DNA of 53,515 bases from a virus (Duplodnaviria; Caudoviricetes). Where the stretch lies: positions 1 to 53,515 of IMG/VR virus record IMGVR_UViG_3300021373_000958. One strand, given 5' to 3'. The position numbers were made by a program, and so were the translations under genes. The notes under the pieces are model-generated. The model made no database searches. It saw only the letters and a program-made list of their open reading frames with translations, and had not been told where the DNA came from. Numbering within the stretch: the stretch's first letter is position 1; every line of letters begins with the position of its first letter. This document shows positions 1-41,696 of this stretch, in pieces.

Positions 1-1041
1 CCTATTCTGGGCGTAGTATGTAGTGCTCGTATTATTTAGAGTGTCATAAGATTCAGGTGACCACTTAGCACCAGATGTTTGACCAGTAATTACTTCAGCG
101 GTAGTGAAGGTTCCTGTTCTGTTGATGACCTGTAGAGATCTTGTAGTAGCATCCCAGGACTTGACTTCTGCTCTGTTGTCTTTTGGCGAGTAGTCGATTG
201 TAACGGTAGGTGCTGAAGTATACCCAGAACCACCGTTAGTGATAAGGATGCCAGTAACAAGACCAGTCGAACTAACTGATGCTGTGGCTGTTGCTCCACT
301 TCCTCCGCCTCCTGAGATTGTAACTGTAGGTGGTAATGCAGAATTGTAATGCAATCCACTATCAGTAATGGTGATGCTATCTACAGCATCTCCATCTGTT
401 GTTGCTGTCGCCTTAGCAAGGAACTCATCGCCAACAACTTCCTCACCAACAACAAATGCTCCTGTGCCACCAGGATCCATAACAAGTTTGATGGCAGCGC
501 CAAACTCCAGTTCAATATCATCAATCTCTTCAACACCTGTCTCAAAGGTATCGCTACCGAGTTCATAGAGTTCACAAGTTAATATGTAGAATTGGATCTT
601 GCCAAACTGGAAGAATGGACTTTCTTTCTCTACAAACTTGATCTCGTAGATGTCTTGTGTTAGTGGGAAGTAAAGAAGGTCTCCTTCATTAGGTCTTCCG
701 TCATAAGTTAGAGTTGGTTGCTCTGCTGCTACTACCTGATCCCAACGTCTAGTTGAGACACGGAATACAACCTCGTCTGTAATTTTCAATCCAAACTTAC
801 TGACAAACTCTGCTCCGTCAGCAAATCCAGTTACATTTTGTAGAAGCATCTCAATCTGAAACTGCTCCTGATACTTTGAATATCTTACCTCTTCAAGAGT
901 ATTATCTTGAAGCATAGTTCTAGGCAGATAATAGATATCTGTTCCGAACAATTTAATTTGCTCGTCAACTAGATCCTGGTAGAGGTTTTGCTCTCCAGGA
1001 TCTCCCTGATAGTATGTTGGAAAGTAAGGACTAGTAGGCAT
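1..1041 (-). CDS. gp14: T4-like neck protein gp14, 3' end runs off the window
   Basis: Manual translation from ATG at 1041: MPTSPYFPTYYQGDPGEQNLYQDLVDEQIKLFGTDIYYLPR...FVSKFGL...RPNEGDLLYFPLTQDIYEIKFVEKESPFFQFGK; directly follows gp13; not in the ORF track because it is open at the edge. Confidence 0.9.
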   Translation of the reverse strand, partial: MPTSPYFPTYYQGDPGEQNLYQDLVDEQIKLFGTDIYYLPRTMLQDNTLEEVRYSKYQEQFQIEMLLQNVTGFADGAEFVSKFGLKITDEVVFRVSTRRWDQVVAAEQPTLTYDGRPNEGDLLYFPLTQDIYEIKFVEKESPFFQFGKIQFYILTCELYELGSDTFETGVEEIDDIELEFGAAIKLVMDPGGTGAFVVGEEVVGDEFLAKATATTDGDAVDSITITDSGLHYNSALPPTVTISGGGGSGATATASVSSTGLVTGILITNGGSGYTSAPTVTIDYSPKDNRAEVKSWDATTRSLQVINRTGTFTTAEVITGQTSGAKWSPESYDTLNNTSTTYYAQNR

Positions 1042-8500: not shown

Positions 8501-11500
8501 AAACAGTCCGTTCCAACTCCACCAGAAGAAACGTCAACACCAAAGTATTCACCATCGGTGTATCCATTTCCAGGGTTGGTAATTACAATCTTATCAATAT
8601 AATTTACTTTTACGTTAGAAGCATCAAATACTAGTGGAGAATCTGGTCTGATAAATTCAACAACTGCCCCAGAAGGAACGCTAGATTGAATTGGTGTACT
8701 TAGCGTAAGTGTTGCTTCGCCGTCTGCTACAACAATTTGAGAAATTGTGGTATCTTCTGCAAAATATGATCCAGGAACTAACTCATGACCAATCAGTAAC
8801 TGACTATCGGCATTGAAAACCAATTGCTGTGATGGAGTATTTGAAGCGGAAATCGTCTTGAGGAAGTAACGATTTTCTAGTGCTTTGATAGTCTGAGTTA
8901 CTGGTTTATATGTTTGATCACCAGCAAGGAATGTAAAGGAAGATGCAGCTCCATCACCAAGCAATGTCGTAGACATCTTGCCAGGACCAGTGATATTATT
9001 AACAGCAACTGATGTTGTAGATAGAGAAACCCAGTTATCAATATCTTGTGCTGAAGTATTGACAACACGTAGAACATTTACTAGATTTGGAGCTGGGGCG
9101 TGATCTTCAATATTATCTGTATCTTCAATCTTGATATTGTTGACAATATTTGCATAAACACGAGATTCAATTAATGAATTAGCGGAGGCAGTTGTTCCAC
9201 CAGCACCAGGAGCACTGAAGCTAATTCCTGGTGCCGTTGTATAACCTTGACCACCAACATATCCAGCATTCTCTGTGATAGTAATAAGAATTACTTTTCC
9301 ATCAGCGATAGTTGCTGTTGCTGTTGCCGTAGTTCCTGAGGCAGGAGCTGCAATACTTACTGTTGGAGCAGAAGTGTATCCAGAACCACCATCTACAATT
9401 TGAATTTCGTATACTACACCTTCAACATAATCAGTAACTTGTTGAATACCTCCAGTGATATCACCTGTCAGAAGTTGACCATTAGTAAATACAAGAGTAG
9501 GATCAACATTAATTCCGAGATAAGAACTTGTTAGATCATTTTCTAGAATGTATGATGTGTTAGTATCACCTTGAATTGCGATATCACCCGCAAGTGGACC
9601 TTCTAGAGAAAGTCTTTCTGCTTCATCAGCAACCGTATAGATGCTGAATGGTCTTAGTGCTGGGATCTGGTCTAGAGAGATCTTACCACTATCGGTAAGT
9701 TCAACCAGTGCTCTAGGAACTGCGCTAGTTGAATATGGTTTGTTTAGATAGGGACCGAGGTTGTTTCCAATGTAATCCTTGACTGCCTTCTGAGTTGAAA
9801 TCAGTGAGTTGCTGGAGAATGCTCCACCAAGGTCATTAGCAGCAGAGAAACCTGTAACAACAACGTCACCACCTTTCAATTTGAGGAATTCAACTTCGGA
9901 GATCGAAACCGTTCCAGTAAAGGTAATGTTACCAGTTCTGTTTTCAATCTTTGCGAACGTTCCAACCTTAAAGTCTCCAAGTTCGTCAGTTCCAGAAACA
10001 TAAACACGACCATAGTTTTCAGAAACCTGTTCGTATCCATCAATCTTAGTTCCGCCGTTTTCTGGTAGAGCATTATAGTCTGTTCCAGAACCAGCATATT
10101 CCCAAGTGTGTGAAGAGGAGTTAACGATAGATGGTCTGTGAAGTCTAACCTGTGTGCCAACCATTGTGGCATCATCTACGTTAAGAACTGGAGTTTGAGT
10201 TGCTTTATCCTGAATAAGAATAGGAGCGTTCAGTGAGAGAGATGCTGTGAAAGGAGGACCAACAGTTACAGAACCTACACTATCAACAAAATACTCAATG
10301 TTAGGATCTTGGTTCTCAAAATCTGCAAATTTTACAACATAGTGCTCAAGTGGTTCTCTTCCAAGACCACCAACACGAAGAATTGTGCTACCGTTTGGAG
10401 TAATGTTTGTGCTTACAACCGTTCCAATGTCGAACGAATATGCTTCATCTCTGTAACCAGTTGCTCTCAGAGCATAGATACCGAAGTTAGTAGCAGAGTT
10501 AGTAATAGAAGCATAACCACCAGATTCTGCGAGAACACCATCTTTAGCAAATAGAACGAATACCGAAACCAGCTGGGTGTATCCATCGTTAATGATCTTA
10601 TATCCAGTTCCGTTGAATGAAACAATGGTAAACTGTGCAGCAACCATGGATTTACCCTGGTTGGGAGTTTCTGCATTGCCGTTAGCGTCTAGACCTGGGA
10701 ATGGACAGTTTGGTTGCTTAACCTTACTACCATCGATTTCGCAACCACCACCACCTTTAAAGGAAATAACAGAAGCGTTTTGAATATATGGAGATGCTTC
10801 AATAATAGGAAGATCCATATATGTTGATAAAATATTGACACGTTTTTGGTCAATATCATACATTGAAAGTTCTGGAACGTTTAAAATGGAATCTGTATTG
10901 TATAGAGTTCCGTAAGTTTTTGCAGGTGGAGTTCCACCTGCAAGAATATCATCTACTGTTTGGAAAGATGTTGTAATGGTTGAGACAACATCAGCACAAG
11001 TTGGTGTAGTAGTATCTTCGGTGACAGTTGAATCTGTATACAGAGGTAAGATGGAATACAGTGGTTGGTATACTGGCTCTGAGTATGCACCAGTTCCAGT
11101 ATGCCAATTTCTTACTGCAAGAATACAAAGATCTCTTACCTTCTCAAAGGCATATCTTGTAACAGGAAGTTCTGGTTGAGAAATGCCAGTAAGAACTCCT
11201 CCAGTGAAATATGCTTCAGCGGAGGTAACCATACCAGAGTTACCACCCAGAACCATGTCTCTTCTTAGAGATTGGAGAATGTAACCAATATCTCTCTTAC
11301 AGACATTCTCACCTACTACATAATCTCCATAGTTAACCGTTGGGAGATTGTTGAGGTTTCCATTGGATACAGCATCTGTAATAACACCAACTAAGGTGTC
11401 GATTGCTGCTCTAACATTTGCACAAGAGTTAGGATCTGTGTTGGATCCAGTTGCGGGATCTGCGGTAATTGTTAAGTCAGTTACAGTTAACTGGTTTGTA

Positions 11501-27243: not shown

Positions 27244-29055
27244 TCAGAATTCGATAACTAGTTTGATATCTTCGATCTGGTCAGGAGCACGAGTGATAAG
27301 ACGACGGTTTTCGATGTAGATAACCTCACCAGAGTTATTCTCAATTTCGGGGGATGCTAGACCTGCAGCAAAAGTAGATCCCAGAAGAGCACCAGCATAA
27401 GTAGTAGAGACAAAACCCGATGCTGTAGAACTTTCTCCAGTAATAGCATTAGCACCATTGCTTTCAAATGCTCTTACAACACCCTGATTTGTGTGAGCAT
27501 CATTGGTTTGAATATACTTAAGAACACCGTCAGTTGTAGAACCGCTGTCTAGTGTCCAAGAAACGACCGTTCCGTATGCAAATCCACCTGCTACAGTTTG
27601 GAAAATCTTTTCATCAACCGCATAGTCTGCACTAGCACCAGTGATCTTGACAGCTTTCAGACCAGAAAGTGTATCTGCTGTTGCAAATGTAGTTGTTCCC
27701 CAGGATAGCGGATCTGCAATGATACCAATACGACGGAAGTCATTATCAACTGGGAAGTCACCAGCACCTTCTGCATAAGTTAAGCGAATATTGGTCATTA
27801 CACGCTTACCATTCAATTCGGTTTCGTGATCGGAACCATGACCACCTTGAGGAGGTAAAATTGCTTCTAGTGCAGCATTTCCACTGTAACCGCTAACACT
27901 ATTGGTCAAACCAGCATCACTGAATAGATTACCAGTTTCTAGAAGGATGTTTGCATAGGTGTATCCAGATCCACGAGACTGAATGCTTGCGGAAGTGATA
28001 GTGCCAGAACCATTAGTTACTAGTTCTACAACTCCACCTACACCATCACCCTTAATTCCAGTATAAAGAGTTTGTGAAATTGGAAGACCTGCTCCACCAT
28101 CTTCAATAACTACTGTATCAATAGCACCAGGAACTGCTAGTGCTTCAACTGCTTGACGTGAAGTGTTGCTGCGAAGAACGACTGGCATGAAGTCGGAAGA
28201 CAAGAACTTCAGAACATCATCTGTTGGGATGGTATACATGTATTTCCAGATGTAACCAGCACCAGTGGTTTCTGTATAGAGACCTGTTCCTGCATCGTAG
28301 TTAGGAGCGCCAGTGGATGGTTCTTCCGTAGCGTTTTGACCAGTTGTGTTTGAAGGATTTTCGCCATTGAATAGGCACTTGAATACTTCATATTGGGAGT
28401 TCATTACATAGAACTTAGCATCAGCGATAGAAGCAGCACCAGTTGCGGCTTGCTTACCAATCTGACCGCCACCGCCAGGAGTATCTGCATAATCTGGTTT
28501 CCACATGTCAAACTTAGGATTGGCAACTAGATCCCAGTTGTAACGACGGATAACTGTTCTTGCGAAAGCATCGTTAATGCGCTTTGCAGCAATGATTTCG
28601 TCATATAGAGCAATTTTTTCTCTCTGATTGTCTAGTGGGAGAGGTGGAACATCTTCGGTTGCATAACGATAAACACCAGACTTAGCAGTAGCACCTGTAT
28701 CGGATCCACCAGATCCGCCAGTGCGGCACTTAAGATCAGATCCCAACGCTGGAGCAGAGTTAACACCGTTGCTGCCAAAAACGTCGGTTAGAAGAAGGGC
28801 GCTATCATAAACAGCAGCAATTGTGGCACGGAAAGTAGTGGAACCATATGTTCCTACATACACTTCATCGCCAATTGTAAAAGAAGTAGCATTCTTGGAA
28901 TAAATTTCTAGGTATGCTCTCCATGGTTGTGGACGACCCACGAAGAAATACATTCGTGAACGCTCTGCACTAGTGTCAGTCGCGCCCTCAGTGAGAGATT
29001 CTAGGAATTGCTTCGCGTTAAAAATACGAAACTTATCAGAAATAATAGCAGCCAT
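27244..29055 (-). CDS. gp8: baseplate wedge subunit gp8
   Basis: MAAIISDKFRIFNAKQFLESL...YFFVGRPQPW...FYVMNSQYEVFKCLFNG...GYIWKYMYTI...NDFRRIGIIADP...IYIENRRLITRAPDQIEDIKLVIEF. Confidence 0.9.
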   Translation of the reverse strand: MAAIISDKFRIFNAKQFLESLTEGATDTSAERSRMYFFVGRPQPWRAYLEIYSKNATSFTIGDEVYVGTYGSTTFRATIAAVYDSALLLTDVFGSNGVNSAPALGSDLKCRTGGSGGSDTGATAKSGVYRYATEDVPPLPLDNQREKIALYDEIIAAKRINDAFARTVIRRYNWDLVANPKFDMWKPDYADTPGGGGQIGKQAATGAASIADAKFYVMNSQYEVFKCLFNGENPSNTTGQNATEEPSTGAPNYDAGTGLYTETTGAGYIWKYMYTIPTDDVLKFLSSDFMPVVLRSNTSRQAVEALAVPGAIDTVVIEDGGAGLPISQTLYTGIKGDGVGGVVELVTNGSGTITSASIQSRGSGYTYANILLETGNLFSDAGLTNSVSGYSGNAALEAILPPQGGHGSDHETELNGKRVMTNIRLTYAEGAGDFPVDNDFRRIGIIADPLSWGTTTFATADTLSGLKAVKITGASADYAVDEKIFQTVAGGFAYGTVVSWTLDSGSTTDGVLKYIQTNDAHTNQGVVRAFESNGANAITGESSTASGFVSTTYAGALLGSTFAAGLASPEIENNSGEVIYIENRRLITRAPDQIEDIKLVIEF

Positions 29056-29113: not shown

Positions 29114-32100
29114 TTAGTTAATTGCAAACGGTATCACTTCATCGCCACTTGAGATAGTATTTGGTCCAGATATGACTGTGCAACTATTGAAAGATGTATT
29201 TGACTTACTGGTGTAAGAAATGAGAGTTCCTTGTGCAGTAAAGAGATGACCACTATCTGGGAAATATGCAGTGTTATTGACATTCAGAATGAATGGAATA
29301 GTTCCAGTAAATGCACTGTGAGTAACTGGATTATTGATAGATGGGCGAACCAATCTAAAGACTCTACCAGACTTCATGTAACTAGAACTATGTCTTTCGG
29401 TAAAATCTCCAATTGTCAGTGCGGGGTAATAAATTGCCATATCACCAATCGCAATTCCAGAAACACTCATGACACCACTGTCAACAAATACATCACCAAA
29501 ATTGCCAATAGAAGGTCCTAGTTTTGCTAATGTGTAATCTCCTCTATAATCAATTTGTCCAACAACAAATGTGAAGTTGTTGATAATAACTACGTTTCCG
29601 TTTCTTTGTGTGACATCTTTGGATGCTAGTTGAATTGTAGATCCACCTCTCAAAATAATTTCATCAGTGAAGAATACCTCTTCGACATATCTATCAATAA
29701 ATCCAGTTTCGGGTGGTTTAACAATGACTTCCCTATTAACAATCAGACTATCTGAAATCGTAGTGATCTTCTGAATCTCTAATTCAATCACAGATGAAAC
29801 ATCTGAAGTAGTAATTTCGAAATCACTCTCAATCGTAACAAAACCAGCAAATGTTACTGCGATATCTGTATTCTGAATAGGAGCAGCGATTACAGAACCA
29901 ATAATCTCTTTTGTTGGAGTTGCAATTGAGTATGTTGGCGAAGAAATTTGTCTTTGAGTTTTTCTTTCGATCTCACGACTTGTGGTGCTTGCACTGACAG
30001 TGGTTACTCCACTCTCACTTTCAATTACTACTACACCGCCATAAACCACGGATACTGGATCTGGGATTTGACGTAAGAAAGTTCCAGCAACCCAGTTTTG
30101 AGCAATTGTATTTTGCTCTCCTCTTTGTACTTTGAGGAAACGATCACCAATCTTACGATAGTAGTAAACTACCTCGTCGCCAATTAACAAATATCCAGAA
30201 GTCTTAAATTTGCTAGTGTCTGCAATGTATATAATGTTTTCACTAGCTTCAAGATCAATTTGTAGATAAGCACCAACTTCAAAGAAGTTAATATTATCAA
30301 TAGCGTTATTAAGAATAATATTTTGTAAAGATGTAGTAATCTGTCTACTAGCAGATACAACAGAAGTTGATGTAATATCTTCAATAGGAGTAGCAACTAT
30401 AGAAACATATTCGCAAACATCTTTAAATACATCAATTTTCTCTACTGTGGTATTCAGTGGAGCAGTATACTTTAATAATTTAGATCCAGCGGAAAGGTTA
30501 GTTCCAACTTCCTCTTCTAACTGAATTTCTTCTTCTAGTTCCCAGTCTACCTTTTTGGGACTATCTGCAACAATAGCAGATGTTGCAAATCCCAGTGGTG
30601 GTGGGAAACTGATAAGATCAACAGTTGAAGATATAATTATACCAGCAGTTTCAACATATGGATTGACCGCAATATTAATAAGTGATACGCCGATGTCTCT
30701 TTCTGAGAGAATTTCATATCTTCTAGAAACAACCGCTATGGGCGCTTCTTCGTAACCAGAACCACCATCAATCAAATCAACACTAATTACCTGTCCTTTA
30801 CTTACCAGAACGTTTGCTCTAGCACCACCGCCCCTTCCAGTCTTAGGAATAAATTTAATAACTGGTGGTGTGTAATATTGATATGCTGTTGGTTGAGTTA
30901 TAGGATCATAACTACGTTGGTTCCACTCCAACCTCTCAATCTTACCAGTAAGATTACCATTGCTATCTTTTTCCATGATAGCAACAACGGCAAGACCTTC
31001 GCCTCTTGTTATTCCAGTATATGTTTCAATAGATACTGCAGCATAGATTTCATTAGATAGAGTATTGCCATCTCTGCCATCTTTGCTAGTTGCAGTTGCT
31101 GGAAGTTGTTTTACAGATCTAAATCCTTCTTCTCCTTCAACGCGAATTTTGTCACCATTTGCAAGATATACAAATGGATTTCTGTAAGATTTTCCAATAA
31201 TAGTTCCTTTCCAGAGAGCACTGTCATCTTTCAGAATTTTTCTTCCATCATCGTCTGTATTCAAAGATAATGCTGATGATGTGATATCACTATCACTAAT
31301 AGTATACTGAATGTCATAACGACCCTTAACTGCAAATACAAAATCTAATCCGTCTTCGATGTATCCATTTTGAGATTTAACATCAAATTCAATAGTTCCA
31401 GCATTATTAAAGAAGTTTGAAACTTCACCAATAATATTAAATGTTCCATCTGCTCTCTGTTGCCATAGGTGAATTAGATTTCCAATCTTGTCTCCCATCC
31501 AAGCATAAGTTCCAAACTCATTAATGATTGTAGATGTTAATCCAGAAATTGTTAGTTTTCCTCTAGCATAGTAAGTATCTGGTGCAAAATCGTAGATATT
31601 CAAAATCTGACCAACATCTCTTCCATAAAGATATCTCATGTCAATCTTCATTTCCTTTTGGATGGGAACATTGAAGTAAATGTTTGGACCAGAAATTGTA
31701 TAAGAATATCCTTTTCTTTGTAAAACGCCATCTAGGAAGACGTATAAGTTATCTTCCGATTCTACATTTTGTACGGTGTTATCGATAACATCCAAAATTA
31801 AGAATGGACCATTCCTAATTCCATCAACCAAATCATAATCAATTGTAAGGCGTTTGTAGTTGCCAACACCAACACCAACAATTTTTTCAACTGCTGTTGG
31901 CTCACCAATACTCTTGGCACTAAAGTCTTGATCCCAAATTGGAGCAACATCAAATTTGATGATGTTTGGAATTACAGTTCTATCAATAAAGTATGCATCA
32001 AATAGTGGGAAGTTTTCTGTATACTTTGGTCTTTGCAATACAGCATTAATTGTCAAGAATAGATCTTCATCTTCTTCAACAATTACTTCGGAACCATCTT

Positions 32101-35100
32101 CCCAATACAACTCAAATTCTTTAGTTTCACCATCAATATAATCTGGGAGTGTTCTGGTAACTGCCTCTTGCTGTAGAATATCATCAACGTTTGAAGTCAA
32201 AGAATCGACAGAAGAAATTACATCATTACACTCTTGTGCTAGAAGTAGAGGATCACCAATAATATTGTAATTAGAATAGGTTAGTGTCTGTGACCAGTTA
32301 CCTGCCTTATTTGGATTTTGGTTTGTTTTACTAACTAGACCCTTACCCTCAGATAGAATTGTGTCAACAATACTATTGTAAGTGTCAAGGGCACTTTCTA
32401 CTTCAGCGCAGAAAGGACTTTGACTGTCAACCAGAATATTGTTGTCAACGACTGGTGTAATAGCAGTATAAATTCCAGCACCAAGAGTGTTTCTCATTGC
32501 TTGGATCATCAAGTTTTTTGCATACTCAAATGCAGCAAGACTTTCTGTTAGTTCATTGTTGATGAATAGTAAGTTCTCGGATTCTGGATATTTTGCTTTT
32601 ACATAGTATAGTTGTCCAAACTCAACAACTTTTTCATTTCCACCGAAACGGAGATGATAGACATATGCATCCACTAAGAAACCAAGATCTCTTTGGCACT
32701 TAGTTCCTTTTGAATTCCAATCAACACCAGGATATGTTGCTTCTGCCCATCCAATAGTTTCTTCTTGAATATATGCTTTGTTTGCTGCAATTAAATTAGC
32801 AGCATCATAGAAAGTGCCGTTGTTAATGCCACTCCATGAGAACGTTGCCTGATCAGTTCCAGAGAAGGATACGGGTGCAGTAACTGTAAAGCCAGGAGGA
32901 ACAGAGAAAGTATTTCCAGGAGCAACTGCACCTGTGTTGGTAGCAAAGGATCCTCCAGTTGCTGTTCCACTCAACAAAGTGGTTCCTGCTGGAGCTCCGC
33001 CGCCACCTGAAGAGTTTGATAATGCACTGTTATTTAAAGTGACTTGTGTTGCACTGTCAATAGAAACAATGTAAGTTCCAGATGGGAATGCTCTGCCAGA
33101 ACTTACAAACATACCAATAGCGAGGTTCTCAGTATCAGTGACATTCATAGTTCTAGAACCTTGAATGTATATTACACTGCTGTCTGTGTAATCCCAGTTT
33201 CTAATGGCAAGTTTTGCTAGTCTTGCTGCATACTTAAAGATACCAGTAGATTGAGATCTATTGTTTTGAATGTATAGATAATCGCTATCTGTGTTGAAGA
33301 TGGAAGTGTAGTCTACAGTTTTAATGTTTCCACCAAATCTAAGATCGTGCTCATATGCATCGAGAATAGAACCGATGTTTACTTCATAATCATCTTGCTT
33401 TGTGCTCCAATCTAAAGATGGATATGTTGCTTTTGCATATCCGATAGTTTCTTCGACAATGAATTGACGATTTCTCTCAACCTGATTAGCAGCATCTAAC
33501 CACCTACCATTACGTTGGAAAATGTTTCTAATTTTCTTGAAGTATCTTGCATTATACTGATTATCTTTAAATGCAACATACTTTCCATAGAAAGTAACAC
33601 CATTATAATATGTAATATCAGACTGTCCTTCACCAGTTTGTTTCTGATATGGTCCAAGAGGTGGTTGACTGAAGATGATACGATCACCAGATACAGTGAA
33701 AGCAACTCCTGGTTCTTGTAGTACACCATCTAGACTAATTACTAGATTTTTGTCACTATATGGACTAAATGGAACTCCGCTGTCATTTAAAATCTGGAAT
33801 GATGTTGTTCCCTGCAATCTGCCATCGGTATCATAGTATCCATCGAAAGGAGCATCAAGTGATACTTCAAACGCACGCATTTCATTGAACAAGAACTCAC
33901 TAGTAGCAGCAGAACCAAATCCTCTACGAATTCTTTGATTTTCTACCTTTTGAACAATCTGCGTAACAGTTCTAGTAGTGTTCTCTACAGTAATTTTATT
34001 TTTTGCAGGATCCCAAAGTTGAATAATTGAGAAATGAGATGCTTTTGGTGTTTCTGCTGGCATCTCAACTGGTGCCGTCGCCTCAACATCAACTTGACCA
34101 AATAGTTTAAATCCAGCGGGGTGAGTTGTGGACTTAATTAATTCACGCCATTGACCAATGGGTGTCTTGGATTTTACAACATATGAGTAGTCTTGATAGA
34201 AGAAACTATCCAAGATCTTCTGATTTGATACTCCAAGTTTTCCTCTGTCGGACTTGAAATATCCAATGTTGTCATAGAAACCAGTGATTTGTTCTGCAAA
34301 TGTGCTTACAAAAATTGCTTTGATTGTCGCAGATACTGGAGAATTTAGAGACTGGACAGTTTGATTTTCTCTGAAGATACCTTCTACATCCTCCACCTTC
34401 AATAAGTTCGAACCAAATCTCCATTCAGATACTCTAGCACGAGCGACTTCAGTAGATCCAATTCTCTGAACTACAATTTCACCTTTACTAAAATCTCCAT
34501 TGAAGTTGGAAAGTGATAAAACTGATTTGGTATTAAATGTCGATGCTACTGTTCTATCTCTATGGAATGCACCTCCATTGTTAACAATAGAAATACTTCT
34601 CGGAATACCAACAGTTTGACTTTCTGCAAATGCTTCAACATCACTTTCGACAATAGCAACTTCTGGAGCAAAGGTATATCCAACACCAGGATTATCAATA
34701 GTAATGGAGAAAATCTCCCCATTTCTTACAACAATTTTAAACTTCGCATCAACACCATCACCATTGGTAATAATAACTTTTGGATTTACATAATTTGATC
34801 CTTTCTCGTCAATTCTAATACCAACAATAGTGCTGGTAGGAATATCAAATAAAACAGTAGCAGAAGCTCTGAAGTTTTCATTTGAATCTACGCCGCTAAT
34901 TGCTGGAACTTTTTTGTAATTTAATCCTAGATTTGTGATTGCAAATGAATTGATTTCACCAATAGCGAACTGACCAGTAGTAGTATAAGAAATGGATCCA
35001 GAACCATCCCAAAGAGGCTCGCTATTAATATCATAAACAAAACGAGTTGGGGTAACATAATTGAGAGTTTTTACTCCTTGTAGTGGGTCTGTAATTATTT

Positions 35101-38100
35101 TTAGAGAAGCACCATCTGCCTGAACAATACCTTTTCTATCATAATAGTAGAAATTGGTAAAGTTAGTGCCAGTTTTTGTTTGATATGCATTGCCAGCAAG
35201 TCTTGCACCAAAACCGAACTTGACATCAGTAAATGATCCTGCATTTCCAGGAAGAATTGTAGATGCTGTTTTCTCTACAGTTTCTAAGTTAAAACTTCTG
35301 CTTGGGGACATATCAAAGTATGTTCCAGTCAAAGAAGAGTGTGAAGTATCAAAAACATACTTGTAGAACTCTTGAATATTGATATTTGGATTTGGAGTGA
35401 ATGATATGTTATCTTCTGAGAATTCAAACTTATAATTCAAATCACCAGCAGATCTCACAGCAACAAGTCTGGAGGGACTGCTGCTATCGAAGAAACTGGA
35501 ACTTAGAGTTACTTCATTTGCATTTGTTGTCTGAGTAGCATAATCATAAACAATTACAATTTTTTGGGTTTCTCTATCATATGATTGGACATATCCAGAG
35601 TTAGCACCAGCAAAAATTTGGAAGTTTGGATCGAAGTTGTATCTTGGTTTGTATAGAGATACAACATCGCCGTTATAGTGATCAGAAGATTTAGTTCCTT
35701 CAAGACCTCTAGTTACAAATAATGTGTTGTCAGTAATTGTTTGAACTTCCACAACTTCATTATTAATGGAAAGTAAGTCACCTTCTGCAAATCCAATAGA
35801 AGATTTTACTTGCAGTGCGGAAGAATTTCTAGAGATTCCTACATGATCAACATAAAGTGTAAATCTTGAAATCGATTGTGACGCAATTGATCGAGAAAGA
35901 CTTTCATCATCTATAGATAGATAATCTCCTTTTGCGTATCCACTTCCAGGATTTGTTAAAGTTATAGAAGAAACTCCTGCTGATACTGTAGCAAGTATTT
36001 CTAGATCTTGACTGATAAGATCTCCATTACCATCCCTAACCAACATAAATTCTGGGAAGGTTTGGATTAAGAAATCTCCGTTTGTATAACCATATCCACC
36101 TTCTTTGACGAAAATAACATTGTCCTTGATGACTCCACTTTCGATAGAAAAGTTTGCAAGAAGTCCAGTTCCATTTCCGCCACTAAGGGGAATATTTTTG
36201 TATACACCATCTTTGTATCCAGAATGTGTTCCAGAAACAGTAAGTTTCGAAACATTGTTACTCGTCACAGTGACTAAAGCTTCTGCTCCAGACCCAGAAC
36301 CTCCTGTTAGAGGAACACTAGTATAAGTCCCTGCAGTATAGTCTGCACCACCGTTTAAAATTTGATATCTACCAATACCAGTGAAATCAACTTCATTTCT
36401 TACAATGGGAGCAATAAGAGTTGCTTCTTGATATAATCTCTTTCTCAAGTAATATGTCTTTGTCTTTGTTGTATCGTCTGGATTGACATCAATAGTTACT
36501 TTGTCTCCAATGCCAAGACCATGTGCGACATCAGTTTCAATCAAAGCAACACTCTGATTGACTTCAAATGGTTCTAAGTTGTCGCTGAGTGAAGTTAGAG
36601 TTACAATTCTGGATCCAATGGTGTTGAATAGATTGCTAGACTGAATAAAGTAATCTTCATCTACAATCCAAGTTCCTGTAAGAACTTTGATTTTAACGAC
36701 GTTTTGGCGATTTGTGCTTTCTAATACTTCTGCTGTAGCAATTGGTGTGTTAACACCATCTGTTAAACTTAATATAGCACCTTCTGTATATGAACTATCT
36801 TGATCTACCAAGATTGAGAAAGTCTTGATATCAGCAGAGAATGTGCCTGTGGTATCAAAAGTGCCAACAACTTCCTTGAGAACGATTACATTGTCACTTG
36901 CTACAGTTCCAACAATTCTACCAGACGCTCCAGAAGATGGTTGTCTTAGTGTATCATCAGCAAATAAGAATGCCGTTTGAATTGTTGTAAGTTTTACTAC
37001 CTTTGTCTCTTTGCTTTGTAGATAATTGACAGACTTACCTTTAACAGAAGCAACATTTGCCTCTACCTCGGAACCTTCTGTTCCTTGGTTGTCAAAATAT
37101 ACTTTTGAATTTACAGAGAAGTTAGAAGACGATCTAACAGCATCAATATTATCAATAGTTCCCGATGAAACATCAGAAATGCTCGCAATTAAACCTTCTC
37201 CATTCCTAGACATGCCAGGAACATAATATCTCTTTGCATTCTTTGGAATATCATTCTGATTGATGTCAGAATTATAATTGCTGTCTACTGGGAGAGAATA
37301 GAAATTTGCACCTATGATATAAGGGAACTGTGGTACTTGATTGCTATCAATAGTAAGGAAATAAGCATAAATTCCTTCTGGAAATTCTGGGGTAATGCAA
37401 AATCTTCCATTGTTTTCGTCTAGTGATCCGTTGCGATGAGTATACTCATAGTCATCGATAAAAGATCCAAGTGCGTACGTATTGACAGAAGGACCACCAG
37501 AACGAGAATTTTTGATAGAATAACCAGATGTCATTCTAACAATAGAAGATTGTGGATCTAGTGGATTTTGATGTGCAAAAGGTCCATAGATTGGATTGCC
37601 ATCATAAGCAAAACCAATGATAGGAGAGTGAACTTTATTTGCTGGTTCTGTTCCAGCACTATTCAAGTTATCATTTAAAGCAACACGCAAAGCTTTTGGA
37701 TTGGCAACATAACCATATCCATATTCTAATGCATTGTTATAATTTTGGAAAATGTAACCATTCTCTGTATCAAGATTATTCTTTAACTTTTCAAATCTAT
37801 TGAAATTCCATTCTTTAAGGAGAGGAATGCCAGTAGCGTCTTCTCCAACGGGAATAATGTCTACAATTACAGTTTGCTGAGTGTAGAAGTTACCCTCATC
37901 AATTTTTTCGAAATCTGTAATTCTTCCATCGCCATCAACAATTGCCTCGTAATTAGCAAATCTTCCTCTACCAGCATTATCCCTAATTCTTACAATAGGT
38001 GGAGAAGAATAATATTCACCAGGATTGTCGATAACTAAACTTGTAACTTTTCCTCCAGTTACAATAGCACGAACTTCTGCTCTTCTTCCAGAAGTAATTG

Positions 38101-39898
38101 TAATCTCTGGGGTTGTTGGGAAAATATCATTAGTATCAACAATAACTCTCTCAACTACTTGACCAGCAAGAACTGCTCTTGCCTTATTTGGAACTTCATC
38201 GACTAAAACAAATGGAGGTTTTACATAACCTCTACCTTGAATGTCAATTTTAATTTCTTCTAGTCTGCCAAATCTTACGCTGTCAGTGTCTCTATAACTA
38301 TAGGTACGAACACCGTTGAGGAGAATACCAGTATCTGCTTTAGGTGTTTGATATCTTTCAGTGGATGTTGTTGCTCTCTTTCTAATTAAACGCAAGACTT
38401 TTTGATCTAGAACTTGCTCATTGACAGTAGAACCGTCTAAAATCTTGTGTGATGGGAAACTGGATGAGGTAACATAGTAATATTGATCATCTTCATGAAT
38501 AGAAGTAACATTTGTAGGAACTTCATTGAGAGATGCTGCTACAGATGGCAAAGTTGGAACATTTACATCTGCTCCAGTGCTCAACAACCAACGAGTTTGA
38601 TTGGTTCCGCTAAAAACAATTTTTGGATCAGCAGTTATAAATCCAGGTGCAGAAACTTGAATTCTATCACCAACACTGGAATATGGTTGAGCATCTTCTG
38701 GTGTGAGGTTATATACAACACCAAGAATGATAAGAGTAACACCAGATCCAGAAATTTTTACTGGTTTGTATACAGAAGTTCCCGCCGTATGAATAACAGC
38801 ACCAGATGGTTGTCTATTCTTAATGATAAATTGAGTTGCTGTTTTCTCTTCAAAGTCAATTGTTTCGTCACCAATCAAAACAGAACCTTTTTTGTCCCAA
38901 CCTAACGTTGAGAACACATCAATCCTGTTGCCAGTGGTAGCAGTTCCTGATAATGTTTTTTCCAGTTTAGTTTTTGTGGAAACAAAAAACTCACCATTTA
39001 CAGTTTCTGGAGCAAGAACCAAATTGACAATCTGTTCTTCGTCTCTTGTTCCATCTGAAGAAACATTATCTACCGTTGCAGAGGCATATCCATACTCAGA
39101 TGTCTCGGTCTGAACTACTTGTCTGCCAATTAAATCGTTAACATTTCCAGAAACTAGTTTGCACTTAAGTGCATATACATTAATCCAATCAGCATTGGAT
39201 GACTTATATGTGTAATCTTTTGGTTTATATACTTCTGGTTTGTTGTCAATATCTTGAGCAACAATTGTATTGAAGATAAACTTAATAGAACTGGTTGTTC
39301 CCTTTGCCTTGTAGAACTTAGAGATATTCTTGATTAATGTTCTCTTGTCTACTTCCCCCTTTAAATATTTTTCTGGAAATGAACCAAGATATTGCTTCTC
39401 AAAATTCTTTACTAACGCATAAAGAAAGAGATTGCTTACATTATATACTTTTTGTCCAGAATTATGAGGTGCTGCTTCTGTACTGCTAAAGTTGCTTGAA
39501 TTATACAGATCACCAAGAGTTGTGTTACCACTAACACCCCTAGAGCACTCTTGTAGTTCTGTATCTGTTCTGGTAGCATAAAAAATGATTTCGTTATCAA
39601 TTCTGACGTAACCATTCTTTTCTGGGAATGATTGTGCATCCTCTAAAACGATGGTTGTGTCGCTATCAGTAATAGAAGTTACTAGAACATCATTTTGCTT
39701 GAGGATGTTCTTTTCGTAGTAATCAATGTCTGCATATTTTTGGAGGTTGTTGATAACATCCAAAGTGCCACCTTGCACTTCCTGTGCTTCATAATACTTT
39801 TGCACAAACTTACTGAAAAGTTCATACTCCGTACTGATGAATTGAGGAAGCTGCGATTCGATTAGAGTGGAAATTCTCTTAGTCTTTACAGCAGGCAT
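29114..39898 (-). CDS. gp7: baseplate wedge initiator gp7, greatly enlarged (3594 aa)
   Basis: RISTLIESQLPQFI...LIKNISKFYKAKGTTSSIKFIF; DSFFYQDYSYVVKS...W...IK..THPAGFKLFG; located between gp6 and gp8; contains YHYH-like and CxRD helical inserts. Confidence 0.85.
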   Translation of the reverse strand: MPAVKTKRISTLIESQLPQFISTEYELFSKFVQKYYEAQEVQGGTLDVINNLQKYADIDYYEKNILKQNDVLVTSITDSDTTIVLEDAQSFPEKNGYVRIDNEIIFYATRTDTELQECSRGVSGNTTLGDLYNSSNFSSTEAAPHNSGQKVYNVSNLFLYALVKNFEKQYLGSFPEKYLKGEVDKRTLIKNISKFYKAKGTTSSIKFIFNTIVAQDIDNKPEVYKPKDYTYKSSNADWINVYALKCKLVSGNVNDLIGRQVVQTETSEYGYASATVDNVSSDGTRDEEQIVNLVLAPETVNGEFFVSTKTKLEKTLSGTATTGNRIDVFSTLGWDKKGSVLIGDETIDFEEKTATQFIIKNRQPSGAVIHTAGTSVYKPVKISGSGVTLIILGVVYNLTPEDAQPYSSVGDRIQVSAPGFITADPKIVFSGTNQTRWLLSTGADVNVPTLPSVAASLNEVPTNVTSIHEDDQYYYVTSSSFPSHKILDGSTVNEQVLDQKVLRLIRKRATTSTERYQTPKADTGILLNGVRTYSYRDTDSVRFGRLEEIKIDIQGRGYVKPPFVLVDEVPNKARAVLAGQVVERVIVDTNDIFPTTPEITITSGRRAEVRAIVTGGKVTSLVIDNPGEYYSSPPIVRIRDNAGRGRFANYEAIVDGDGRITDFEKIDEGNFYTQQTVIVDIIPVGEDATGIPLLKEWNFNRFEKLKNNLDTENGYIFQNYNNALEYGYGYVANPKALRVALNDNLNSAGTEPANKVHSPIIGFAYDGNPIYGPFAHQNPLDPQSSIVRMTSGYSIKNSRSGGPSVNTYALGSFIDDYEYTHRNGSLDENNGRFCITPEFPEGIYAYFLTIDSNQVPQFPYIIGANFYSLPVDSNYNSDINQNDIPKNAKRYYVPGMSRNGEGLIASISDVSSGTIDNIDAVRSSSNFSVNSKVYFDNQGTEGSEVEANVASVKGKSVNYLQSKETKVVKLTTIQTAFLFADDTLRQPSSGASGRIVGTVASDNVIVLKEVVGTFDTTGTFSADIKTFSILVDQDSSYTEGAILSLTDGVNTPIATAEVLESTNRQNVVKIKVLTGTWIVDEDYFIQSSNLFNTIGSRIVTLTSLSDNLEPFEVNQSVALIETDVAHGLGIGDKVTIDVNPDDTTKTKTYYLRKRLYQEATLIAPIVRNEVDFTGIGRYQILNGGADYTAGTYTSVPLTGGSGSGAEALVTVTSNNVSKLTVSGTHSGYKDGVYKNIPLSGGNGTGLLANFSIESGVIKDNVIFVKEGGYGYTNGDFLIQTFPEFMLVRDGNGDLISQDLEILATVSAGVSSITLTNPGSGYAKGDYLSIDDESLSRSIASQSISRFTLYVDHVGISRNSSALQVKSSIGFAEGDLLSINNEVVEVQTITDNTLFVTRGLEGTKSSDHYNGDVVSLYKPRYNFDPNFQIFAGANSGYVQSYDRETQKIVIVYDYATQTTNANEVTLSSSFFDSSSPSRLVAVRSAGDLNYKFEFSEDNISFTPNPNINIQEFYKYVFDTSHSSLTGTYFDMSPSRSFNLETVEKTASTILPGNAGSFTDVKFGFGARLAGNAYQTKTGTNFTNFYYYDRKGIVQADGASLKIITDPLQGVKTLNYVTPTRFVYDINSEPLWDGSGSISYTTTGQFAIGEINSFAITNLGLNYKKVPAISGVDSNENFRASATVLFDIPTSTIVGIRIDEKGSNYVNPKVIITNGDGVDAKFKIVVRNGEIFSITIDNPGVGYTFAPEVAIVESDVEAFAESQTVGIPRSISIVNNGGAFHRDRTVASTFNTKSVLSLSNFNGDFSKGEIVVQRIGSTEVARARVSEWRFGSNLLKVEDVEGIFRENQTVQSLNSPVSATIKAIFVSTFAEQITGFYDNIGYFKSDRGKLGVSNQKILDSFFYQDYSYVVKSKTPIGQWRELIKSTTHPAGFKLFGQVDVEATAPVEMPAETPKASHFSIIQLWDPAKNKITVENTTRTVTQIVQKVENQRIRRGFGSAATSEFLFNEMRAFEVSLDAPFDGYYDTDGRLQGTTSFQILNDSGVPFSPYSDKNLVISLDGVLQEPGVAFTVSGDRIIFSQPPLGPYQKQTGEGQSDITYYNGVTFYGKYVAFKDNQYNARYFKKIRNIFQRNGRWLDAANQVERNRQFIVEETIGYAKATYPSLDWSTKQDDYEVNIGSILDAYEHDLRFGGNIKTVDYTSIFNTDSDYLYIQNNRSQSTGIFKYAARLAKLAIRNWDYTDSSVIYIQGSRTMNVTDTENLAIGMFVSSGRAFPSGTYIVSIDSATQVTLNNSALSNSSGGGGAPAGTTLLSGTATGGSFATNTGAVAPGNTFSVPPGFTVTAPVSFSGTDQATFSWSGINNGTFYDAANLIAANKAYIQEETIGWAEATYPGVDWNSKGTKCQRDLGFLVDAYVYHLRFGGNEKVVEFGQLYYVKAKYPESENLLFINNELTESLAAFEYAKNLMIQAMRNTLGAGIYTAITPVVDNNILVDSQSPFCAEVESALDTYNSIVDTILSEGKGLVSKTNQNPNKAGNWSQTLTYSNYNIIGDPLLLAQECNDVISSVDSLTSNVDDILQQEAVTRTLPDYIDGETKEFELYWEDGSEVIVEEDEDLFLTINAVLQRPKYTENFPLFDAYFIDRTVIPNIIKFDVAPIWDQDFSAKSIGEPTAVEKIVGVGVGNYKRLTIDYDLVDGIRNGPFLILDVIDNTVQNVESEDNLYVFLDGVLQRKGYSYTISGPNIYFNVPIQKEMKIDMRYLYGRDVGQILNIYDFAPDTYYARGKLTISGLTSTIINEFGTYAWMGDKIGNLIHLWQQRADGTFNIIGEVSNFFNNAGTIEFDVKSQNGYIEDGLDFVFAVKGRYDIQYTISDSDITSSALSLNTDDDGRKILKDDSALWKGTIIGKSYRNPFVYLANGDKIRVEGEEGFRSVKQLPATATSKDGRDGNTLSNEIYAAVSIETYTGITRGEGLAVVAIMEKDSNGNLTGKIERLEWNQRSYDPITQPTAYQYYTPPVIKFIPKTGRGGGARANVLVSKGQVISVDLIDGGSGYEEAPIAVVSRRYEILSERDIGVSLINIAVNPYVETAGIIISSTVDLISFPPPLGFATSAIVADSPKKVDWELEEEIQLEEEVGTNLSAGSKLLKYTAPLNTTVEKIDVFKDVCEYVSIVATPIEDITSTSVVSASRQITTSLQNIILNNAIDNINFFEVGAYLQIDLEASENIIYIADTSKFKTSGYLLIGDEVVYYYRKIGDRFLKVQRGEQNTIAQNWVAGTFLRQIPDPVSVVYGGVVVIESESGVTTVSASTTSREIERKTQRQISSPTYSIATPTKEIIGSVIAAPIQNTDIAVTFAGFVTIESDFEITTSDVSSVIELEIQKITTISDSLIVNREVIVKPPETGFIDRYVEEVFFTDEIILRGGSTIQLASKDVTQRNGNVVIINNFTFVVGQIDYRGDYTLAKLGPSIGNFGDVFVDSGVMSVSGIAIGDMAIYYPALTIGDFTERHSSSYMKSGRVFRLVRPSINNPVTHSAFTGTIPFILNVNNTAYFPDSGHLFTAQGTLISYTSKSNTSFNSCTVISGPNTISSGDEVIPFAIN

Positions 39899-39902
39899 TT
39901 AC

Positions 39903-41696
39903 TTACTCTTTATATGCAGTGAATGAGGAATTGGCAACATCAACATCAAGATAAACCTCGCGGAGTGCCTTAATGTCATTAGAAAGTGGTTTTACTCTAA
40001 CCGAAATGCGATTATCAAAGAAACTACCTTTGATGATAGTTAAATTATAAATTTTTAGTTCACCTTTTAAATAATCAATATCGCCAACTTCGCTGTCAAG
40101 AACAACCTTTTCACCAGTTACGCTATCTAGTCTATATAGGACAATTTTGCCATCCCTATCTTCAAGATAGACATCAAAATTGGGATACTCAGTTACCCTA
40201 AACCCAGTTGTGGAAAGGACTGGATCGTCACAATCAACATCAAAAGCATTCTGGTAACAAATCTCATAGTAGAAGGTTGAATTGAGTTGAGGATAGAAAT
40301 CCTTCCTCATTGTTACAGAAGTTAAATTAGAATTAATTGCTTGATCTGCATCGTCAATAACACCAATTGCTTTACTGTATCTAAACTTGCCATTGAACTT
40401 CTCTGTATTAGAATTATCAAGATAAGACTGAACCGAAGCAATAACTTTATCTCTAATTTGAGCAGGAGTTTCGTCAGTCTTTGTTCTATCGTAGTAAACC
40501 TTACTTGTTAGTTCGACATATAGAATAGAAGGATCGATCAATACTGGTTCAACAGATGCGACAATATACTTCTCTAATTCTGTTACAATTTCATTTTTAG
40601 TGAGAGAAGTTAAGTAACTTGCATCATTTGGTTTCAATGCAATGAAAACTTTTCCATACTGTGGAGGGTCCTGATCTTCGCCTCCAAAGATGATAATATC
40701 GCTCGTGGCGGGATATATCCTACGAACGATTGCTTCGTAGTCCTGGGCGGTTACAGCGCGGTCCTGGGTGCCATATGACTTGGGAGCGGTATATTTAATT
40801 TTCTTGGTGCTCTCAATTTCCTCTCCACCAGAGGATGGAGTAGTGGAAGCAATGGAAACGGAAACATTGGGAGTAATACCATTTGGGTTTTCAAGTACAC
40901 CAGAGAAAACAAATGTCCTTACGCCATTGCTAGATGGTCCAGAAGTTGTGATATATGAGACTTCAACACGAGATCCATTCTCAAGTTTCTTTCCTAATAC
41001 TCCATCACCCAACAAAATTTCATATCTTTCATCTTCAATTTCGTCTAAGAAGAATACTTTTGAATTTCCGTCGATACCGAGAATATTATCTGCAACTAGA
41101 TATGGTTCACTAAAACTACCACCACCAGGATAAACTTTCACTCTAATGGTGTTAGTATCAATGTTGCGGTTGTCAAGAACAAATCTTTGCGTCTTGAGTG
41201 CTGTATTGACGGTGAATGTATTAGTAAGGAAAGTTCCCTCTCTCAAAGGAACATCAGTAAAGGTTGCAACACCGTTAGCTACCTGTGCCGTAACATCATC
41301 AACGACAACATACTGATAAATGCTATTATCATATGAAGCAATAAATCCTGTTCCTTTCTTCAAAAGCAACTCAGTATCAGTTGTAGCGTTTTGATAAGTT
41401 GCTGTAAAGGTAATATATGCTGTAGGAGAGGTTGCGCTCTTGGGTCTGTACCCTAATTGCTTTGCAATCGCTACTACGTTGTCCCTGAGGGTCGCTGAAT
41501 CAATGAATAGTTCATTGACCACCATGTTGGTGTTAAACGCCGTATAATAGGTGTTATAGGCGAGTGTATCGATGAGAGTGGATAATGCCGATCCCTCAAA
41601 ATCATAATCAGTAAAATCTGAATTTGCTCTGAGATAATCTTTCAGAGCAGCTTTGATATCTTCAAAGTCTAAGTTAGCAACTTGTGTATATGGCAT
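39903..41696 (-). CDS. gp6: baseplate wedge subunit gp6
   Basis: LDFEDIKAALKDYLRANSDFTDYDFEGSALSTLIDTLAYNTYY...FIDSATLRDNVVAIAKQLGYRPKS...QDRAVTAQDYEAI. Confidence 0.93.
   Translation of the reverse strand: MPYTQVANLDFEDIKAALKDYLRANSDFTDYDFEGSALSTLIDTLAYNTYYTAFNTNMVVNELFIDSATLRDNVVAIAKQLGYRPKSATSPTAYITFTATYQNATTDTELLLKKGTGFIASYDNSIYQYVVVDDVTAQVANGVATFTDVPLREGTFLTNTFTVNTALKTQRFVLDNRNIDTNTIRVKVYPGGGSFSEPYLVADNILGIDGNSKVFFLDEIEDERYEILLGDGVLGKKLENGSRVEVSYITTSGPSSNGVRTFVFSGVLENPNGITPNVSVSIASTTPSSGGEEIESTKKIKYTAPKSYGTQDRAVTAQDYEAIVRRIYPATSDIIIFGGEDQDPPQYGKVFIALKPNDASYLTSLTKNEIVTELEKYIVASVEPVLIDPSILYVELTSKVYYDRTKTDETPAQIRDKVIASVQSYLDNSNTEKFNGKFRYSKAIGVIDDADQAINSNLTSVTMRKDFYPQLNSTFYYEICYQNAFDVDCDDPVLSTTGFRVTEYPNFDVYLEDRDGKIVLYRLDSVTGEKVVLDSEVGDIDYLKGELKIYNLTIIKGSFFDNRISVRVKPLSNDIKALREVYLDVDVANSSFTAYKE

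Follow-up and report, generated by a model that had tools for sequence, protein, structure and literature searches.

Phycobiliprotein subunits (CpcA/B, CpeA/B, MpeA/B and ApcA/B; Pfam family PF00502, Phycobilisome) are free proteins of 160-185 amino acids. In ApcE, one PB domain is followed by REP linker domains; the protein is associated with host thylakoids, is not a virion component, and carries its bilin at a different Cys. Rockwell et al. (2023, PMC10151467) describe the CXRD motif of phycobiliproteins, in which the Cys forms a thioether with the bilin and the Arg and Asp hydrogen-bond to it, and also BBAGs, paralogous globins located outside the phycobilisome, some with CXRD, that attach bilins without lyases. 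Here, a 53,515-nucleotide stretch of viral DNA (IMG/VR record IMGVR_UViG_3300021373_000958, positions 1 to 53,515, hereafter the window) was analyzed, in which a helical module is present in two giant virion proteins, one at the position of the baseplate wedge protein gp7 and the other a tail-fibre protein. By homology, the module is almost certainly a phycobiliprotein-type globin domain (helices A, B, E, F', F, G and H, without the X-Y hairpin). Whereas the subunits are free, such modules form part of virion proteins of 700-7900 amino acids, in which they occur singly, in tandem or nested. BBAGs are stand-alone bacterial proteins encoded beside bilin-synthesis genes, and are likened to the module by description only.

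Identification of the module was achieved by profile comparison. When the five window copies were combined into a profile and compared with the PDB sequences, 35 of the 36 matches at E<=10 were phycobiliproteins, the best being C-phycocyanin alpha (E 0.0017, residues 34-104), in which the kCkRDiGY...GG of the module aligned with KC(S/A)RDIGYY...GG. HHalign of 327 module instances against ten host phycobiliproteins, taken from a Synechococcus genome, returned a probability of 95.1% (P 3.2e-8), compared with no more than 0.2% for 20 column-shuffled controls and 0.3% for a reversed control. In the hidden Markov model (HMM) alignment, the CxRD column of the module received the CxRD (Cys 81-85) of all ten host proteins. 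Moreover, PF00502 itself, with a curated cut-off of 22.2 bits, was found in homologues of the fibre, at 29.9 bits in a 57%-identical orthologue (P0272) and at 57 bits in the short tail fibre of S-RSM4 (P0315), and is precomputed in approximately 103 of 120 fibre homologues, as counted by eye. For structural comparison, 44 orthologues were aligned and residues 2120-2600 of the gp7-position protein folded with AlphaFold2 (AF2), resulting in a model with a pLDDT of 77.5 and a pTM of 0.71. A Foldseek search with this 481-residue model ranked phycoerythrin and phycocyanin chains at the top (E 0.03-0.2). The globin-like all-helical core (A, B, E, F', F, G, H) that characterizes the PF00502 family is present, as are FP/YP...T and GG motifs near the B/E loop and past helix E, at an identity to phycobiliprotein subunits of only 14-20%. 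The N-terminal X-Y helical hairpin is absent: alignments begin at phycobiliprotein residue ~31-34 and the models show no such hairpin ahead of helix A. Because the hairpin is missing and the modules are embedded in fibre proteins, assembly into (alpha-beta)3 discs or phycobilisome rods is unlikely. The initial annotation had described a helical repeat shared by two structural genes; this sharing is borne out, and the module recurs across several giant virion proteins, although it is not an anonymous repeat but a phycobiliprotein-type globin. The only match in a single-sequence phmmer search of the PDB sequences, a Fab (E 0.052), was judged to have arisen by chance.

Both peptides quoted in the initial annotation from the gp7 region are located in one open reading frame (ORF) of 3594 amino acids at 29114-39898 on the minus strand, the strand on which all module features of the window lie. 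Copy 1 (33182-33517, residues 2128-2239) comprises globin helices A-G without CxRD (HMM E 3e-21 and 2e-49), and has Tyr2171 (33386-33388) at the Cys-equivalent position. A beta domain (32831-33193, residues ~2236-2356) is inserted after its helix G, followed by a Gly/Ser-rich linker. Copy 2 (32318-32824, residues 2359-2527) is a complete globin, helices A-H, with both Cys. The first of these, Cys2401 in KCQRD, has its codon at 32696-32698, as had been reported, corresponds to the Cys-82/84 bilin site, and is followed by Arg2403 and Asp2404. The second, Cys2497 in CAEVES (32408-32410), lies at the start of helix H and corresponds to beta-Cys-153/159. Further downstream, Cys2557 in ECNDV (codon 32228-32230), together with the helix of residues 2558-2576 (ECNDVISSVDSL...), spans 32171-32230 and provides the helix H that closes copy 1. 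The Cys-less copy had been said to keep its terminal Cys, and AlphaFold superposition agrees in assigning the ECNDV helix to copy 1.

The remaining copies are carried by the tail-fibre protein (2996 amino acids, 5506-14496). Repeat R1 (11944-12468, residues 677-851) is complete, with KCRRD and the second Cys (HMM E 2e-38 and 3.5e-71). It is followed by R1b (11839-11952, residues 849-886), which has helices A-B only (HMM positions 10-45, E 1.2e-5; AF2 helices 200-226) and forms the outer shell of a nested pair. R2 (11326-11832, residues 889-1057), located between R1b and R3, is complete, with KCKRD and the second Cys. R3 (10927-11328, residues 1057-1190) supplies helices E-H, with VCKRD and the second Cys (HMM positions 41-159, E 1.4e-29), and completes R1b. 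CxRD is therefore found in every window copy except gp7 copy 1, which has YEVN, giving a total of four out of five: gp7 copy 2 together with R1, R2 and R3 of the fibre.

Homology between the gp7 segments and the fibre repeats, the absence of which had been proposed as the refutation of a shared module, is evident from BLASTP against fibre repeat 1, with E-values of 2e-20 for the complete gp7 copy and 3e-13 for the Cys-less copy. The two gp7 copies matched each other at E 5e-28 with 40% identity, and an HMM constructed from 327 copies in other proteins only recognized the complete copy at E 1e-39 and the Cys-less copy at E 3e-21. Whole-protein BLASTP of the gp7-position protein against the fibre gave E 5e-16 and 4e-10; whole-protein self-BLAST listed no off-diagonal matches, but segment-wise BLAST did reveal them. 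The carriers had been called two unrelated genes about 20 kb apart. The spacing holds, at ~20-21 kb, but the genes are not wholly unrelated, since other short segments are also shared by BLASTP. For example, residues 545-636 of the 3594-amino-acid protein resemble 60-122 of the fibre, and 1694-1747 resemble 64-122 (E 7e-5 to 3e-4). Judged from such segments, both giant proteins appear to be mosaics having several modules in common.

The bilin-attachment residues are the most conserved feature of the module. Across 1571 module instances in 150 representative proteins (~1,505-1,507 residues at the triad columns), Cys is conserved at 97%, Arg at 94% and Asp at 99%. In the orthologue alignment of the gp7-position protein, copy 2 retains C in 113/121, R in 113/121 and D in 119/121 sequences, and Cys2497 is kept in 119/121 gp7-like orthologues. 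Judged by its alignment to Cys-82/84 and the adjacent Arg and Asp of phycobiliprotein subunits, CxRD is the phycobiliprotein bilin-attachment triad. The second Cys is similarly placed at the beta-153/159 position: the terminal Cys aligned with Cys159 of a host 178-amino-acid beta-type phycoerythrin in a full-length HMM alignment, and the structural ranges (model 241..397 vs chain 34..172) put C2497 at beta-153, provided that helix H is gapless. Copy 1 had been described as degenerate, a view that the orthologues overturn, as the Cys-equivalent residue is Tyr in all 121 aligned sequences; on that alignment, copy 1 is a conserved variant and not a product of decay. Asp58 (98%), Tyr74 (98%) and Asn64 (83%) of the module, for example D2415 and N2421 of the 3594-amino-acid ORF, are conserved to a degree similar to that of the triad.

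In both proteins, the module copies are probably nested, as judged from the predicted structures. The AF2 model of the gp7-position segment shows helices A-G only for copy 1, then the beta domain, the complete copy 2, and finally a lone helix (model 439-457) starting at C2557. AlphaFold residues 11..457, comprising copy 1 and the ECNDV helix, superpose on one phycobiliprotein chain with a root-mean-square deviation of 2.1 A over 116 residues. In the model, copy 1 is thus broken in its G/H loop by the beta domain and copy 2, and then closed by the ECNDV helix. The fibre displays a related order, with complete R1, R1b (A-B), complete R2 and R3 (E-H), and globins aligned over model 196..535 for 125-133 residues, which indicates that R2 would sit in the B/E loop of the R1b+R3 domain. 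The initial annotation had proposed a mobile domain; mobility here amounts to no more than domain duplication and nested insertion. A globin nested within a globin is an unusual protein architecture.

Relatives contain a "Russian-doll" palindromic order of A-B hairpin(s), one full module and an equal number of E-H pieces, such as A-B, A-B, full, E-H, E-H (L024 10934-16084, L025 17445-22310, L026 16636-21384, and NC_031935.1 88018-90207). The palindromic order suggests recursive insertion of globins into the B/E loop. Among 120 gp7-like orthologues, 12 displayed three HMM pieces instead of two, with copy 2 split; P0035, P0049 and P0079 are examples with 270-450 extra residues in copy 2 loops (B/E or F'/G).

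Beyond the proteins themselves, the module was compared with the bilin-related genes and adsorption behavior of characterized cyanophages. S-WAM2 (18 module matches) and S-PM2 (13) both encode CpeT, with neither bilin reductase nor haem oxygenase, and P-HM2 (6) encodes all three. P-SSM2 has no module match and no CpeT but has bilin reductase and haem oxygenase, while P-SSP7 has none of the four. A giant fibre gene containing 6-14 module matches is preceded by cpeT, ~1-3 kb upstream and in the same orientation, in S-WAM2, S-PM2, S-H9-2 and Syn1. According to a review (PMC10452541), T-type lyases serve the beta-153 position. Regarding adsorption, Liu et al. (2019, PMC6628666) report that darkness prevents the adsorption of P-HM2 but not that of P-SSM2 and P-SSP7, and that adsorption of S-PM2 depends on light without requiring host photosynthesis, the sensor not having been identified. 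By the phenotypes given there, modules are present in both light-dependent adsorbers and in neither dark adsorber, a correlation that represents a lead and not evidence.

The explanation that we somewhat favor is that T4-like cyanophages have recruited a phycobiliprotein-type globin into their giant virion proteins, and that the CxRD-bearing copies bind bilin. Attachment would be covalent, with the bilin either produced by the host or derived from phage ho1/pebS/pcyA where present. At the Cys-84-type site, the bilin might attach autocatalytically, as it does to ApcE and BBAGs, or be attached by host lyases; at the Cys-153-type site, attachment would be performed by the phage T-type lyase CpeT. 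Bilin bound by the CxRD-bearing copies would place chromophores on both fibres and baseplate, so that the virus particle may itself carry pigment, with Cys-less copy 1 acting as a structural scaffold. A covalent bilin on the virion is about as likely as not. The most likely use of such chromophores would be light sensing that gates adsorption, although light-gated adsorption is itself a tentative and rather improbable proposal. Similarly improbable is the notion of the virion as a photoreceptor, in which bilins would absorb light and switch the conformation of fibre or baseplate, with CpeT loading the Cys-153-type site.

A number of observations weigh against this interpretation at its various levels. 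As regards identity, the window copies fall below the Pfam cut-off, the best PF00502 score being 13.5 bits at 33410-33541 in a six-frame search, and Pfam hmmscan of both whole proteins and of single modules gave no match for the module. The Foldseek E-values for the single model are also weak (0.03), so that the identification rests instead on VIA, HMM and HHalign. The nested topology was drawn from AF2 models through alignment ranges only. As regards pigment, in the literature searched no experiment was found on pigment of a cyanophage particle. The second Cys is just 38% conserved across all module instances. Copy 1 is strictly conserved despite having lost the triad, implying that the domain has a role independent of a Cys-84-type bilin, and the aligned host phycobiliproteins offer no equivalent of Asp58, Tyr74 and Asn64, which are invariant in the module. 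The link with bilin metabolism is likewise incomplete. By tblastn, the module was found in 321 phage records vs 71 for CpeT, indicating that the module does not generally require a phage lyase; the latter count is probably an underestimate, because tblastn used one short query and Sullivan (2010, PMC3037559) found cpeT in 12/16 genomes. In neither S-SCSM2R nor S-WAM1 does a module lie less than 15 kb from cpeT, the distance in P-HM2 is ~34 kb, and the cases of synteny are in related phages and do not represent independent events. S-WAM2 and S-PM2 lack a phage bilin reductase (FDBR) and haem oxygenase, and the presence of both genes in P-SSM2 without a module implies that bilin genes have other roles. 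Finally, the correlation with light involves four phages that differ in many other ways.

Some of these same observations support a pigment-free scaffold, which is the strongest rival and a credible one, albeit less probable than bilin binding. In that scheme, a captured host phycobiliprotein gene would serve as a compact, insertion-tolerant building block, with the Cys, Arg and Asp retained for folding or inter-domain contacts. The conservation of triad-free copy 1 in 121/121 orthologues is consistent with such a role, as are the failure to detect CpeT in most module-bearing records and the module-specific invariants Asp58 and Tyr74, which are unrelated to phycobiliproteins. Furthermore, the modules tolerate insertions of 270-450 amino acids in the B/E, F'/G and G/H loops and form nested arrays, as structural scaffolds do. 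However, a free Cys conserved at 97%, accompanied by the bilin-holding Arg (94%) and Asp (99%), is difficult to explain by packing alone, because adjacent positions vary freely, and the proximity of cpeT to module-rich fibre genes likewise speaks against a pigment-free block.

A disulfide-stabilized helical decoration domain, in which the CxRD Cys pairs with the terminal Cys inside each copy, is very improbable. Both Cys were counted in three of the five window copies, and orthologues show good conservation of C2401 and C2497 alike. Nevertheless, conservation of the two across the module is unequal (97% vs 38%), copy 1 retains its terminal Cys (119/121) although its first site is Tyr, and the two positions map to separate beta-phycobiliprotein bilin sites, 82 and 153/159. 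Because of this unequal conservation and the alignment to two bilin sites, the Cys residues are better read as two separate bilin-type sites (Cys-82/84 and beta-Cys-153/159) than as disulfide partners. An obligatory disulfide between them, which the initial annotation had already doubted, is therefore unlikely. A sensor-globin-like domain with another ligand such as haem and no bilin is equally improbable, as none of the 159 profile positions is a His-dominated column.

Were bilin binding to be correct, the consequences would extend to two puzzles of cyanophage biology. The first is the presence of cpeT and bilin-synthesis genes in T4-like cyanophages, even those infecting hosts without phycobilisomes; the role of phage cpeT has been called unresolved (Sullivan 2010, PMC3037559) and that of phage bilin-synthesis genes unclear (Clokie 2010, PMC2984593). 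The second concerns the sensor behind light-dependent adsorption. Domains of the phycobiliprotein type, borne on a virus particle with their pigment sites intact, represent a concrete candidate for both, and one that can be tested at the bench. If true, virion bilins would be the long-sought cause of the dependence of adsorption on light in cyanomyoviruses such as S-PM2 and P-HM2, and a photoreceptor virion would be the reason that these phages carry cpeT and bilin-synthesis genes.

The module is widely distributed among cyanophages. All 321 phage records in which it was detected by tblastn, at 903 places, are cyanophages, and the genes that bear it have been named gp7/baseplate wedge, short tail fibre, tail protein or structural protein. 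The module is also present in PHROGs 4527, 5342, 4406, 18802, 701 and 3442. The profile matches 1345 clusters (50% identity) among 1.84 billion representatives; the best 150 of the 1345 clusters are represented by proteins of 730-7903 amino acids with up to 35 matched stretches each. No paper on phycobiliprotein-like domains in phage virion proteins was found in the literature searched. What is added here is the carrier at the gp7 position, the paralogue with Tyr in place of Cys, the nesting of copies, the synteny with cpeT and the statistics on conservation.

The window derives from a T4-like cyanomyovirus, with bases 31500-34500 being 91.7% identical at the nucleotide level to Synechococcus phage S-WAM2 (Kyanoviridae). 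All of its large genes lie on the minus strand, and their functional names were taken from the S-WAM2 annotation and from PHROGs. The 3594-amino-acid giant virion protein is encoded between a gp6 homologue (39903-41696) and a gp8 homologue (27244-29055), just as the gp7 position in S-WAM2 has T4-like gp25 and gp6 as neighbours in one direction and gp8 in the other. This location, matches to baseplate-wedge PHROGs 2885, 708, 17744 and 438 in addition to PHROG 4406 (E 0), and the annotation of its P-HM2 homologue as gp7 constitute its likeness to the T4 gp7 baseplate wedge protein, a likeness that comes from PHROG families and annotations. It differs from T4 gp7 in its size of 3594 amino acids and in its added modules, namely a YHYH domain, the phycobiliprotein-like globins and beta domains. 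The tail-fibre ORF matches PHROG 5342 "tail fiber protein" (E 0), and its S-WAM2 orthologue is annotated as a tail fiber protein. Also on the minus strand are an ORF of 2694 amino acids, the S-WAM2 counterpart of which is annotated "virulence-associated structural protein", and one of 1263 amino acids. No cpeT, pebS or ho1 is located within the window, which constitutes the whole of the genome record, at 28% completeness.

Several minor observations accompany these results. A conserved gene order was noted, consisting of cpeT, a tRNA cluster, often a 2OG-Fe(II) oxygenase, and a module-rich "short tail fiber/tail protein" gene encoding 4000-4800 amino acids, present at L024 7191-23281, L025 15001-29252 and L026 14998-28296. 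A 194-kb cyanophage contig (L004) was binned in a Synechococcus metagenome-assembled genome (MAG) and a phage-like cpeT was on a 4.4-kb contig (L005) of a "Lewinella" MAG, both of which are probably phage sequences that were mis-binned with cellular DNA. The YHYH domain (PF14240, E 1.2e-28) of the gp7-position protein is located at 37331-37717 on the minus strand (residues 728-856), in the N-terminal third of the ORF, and is precomputed in nearly all orthologues of this protein.

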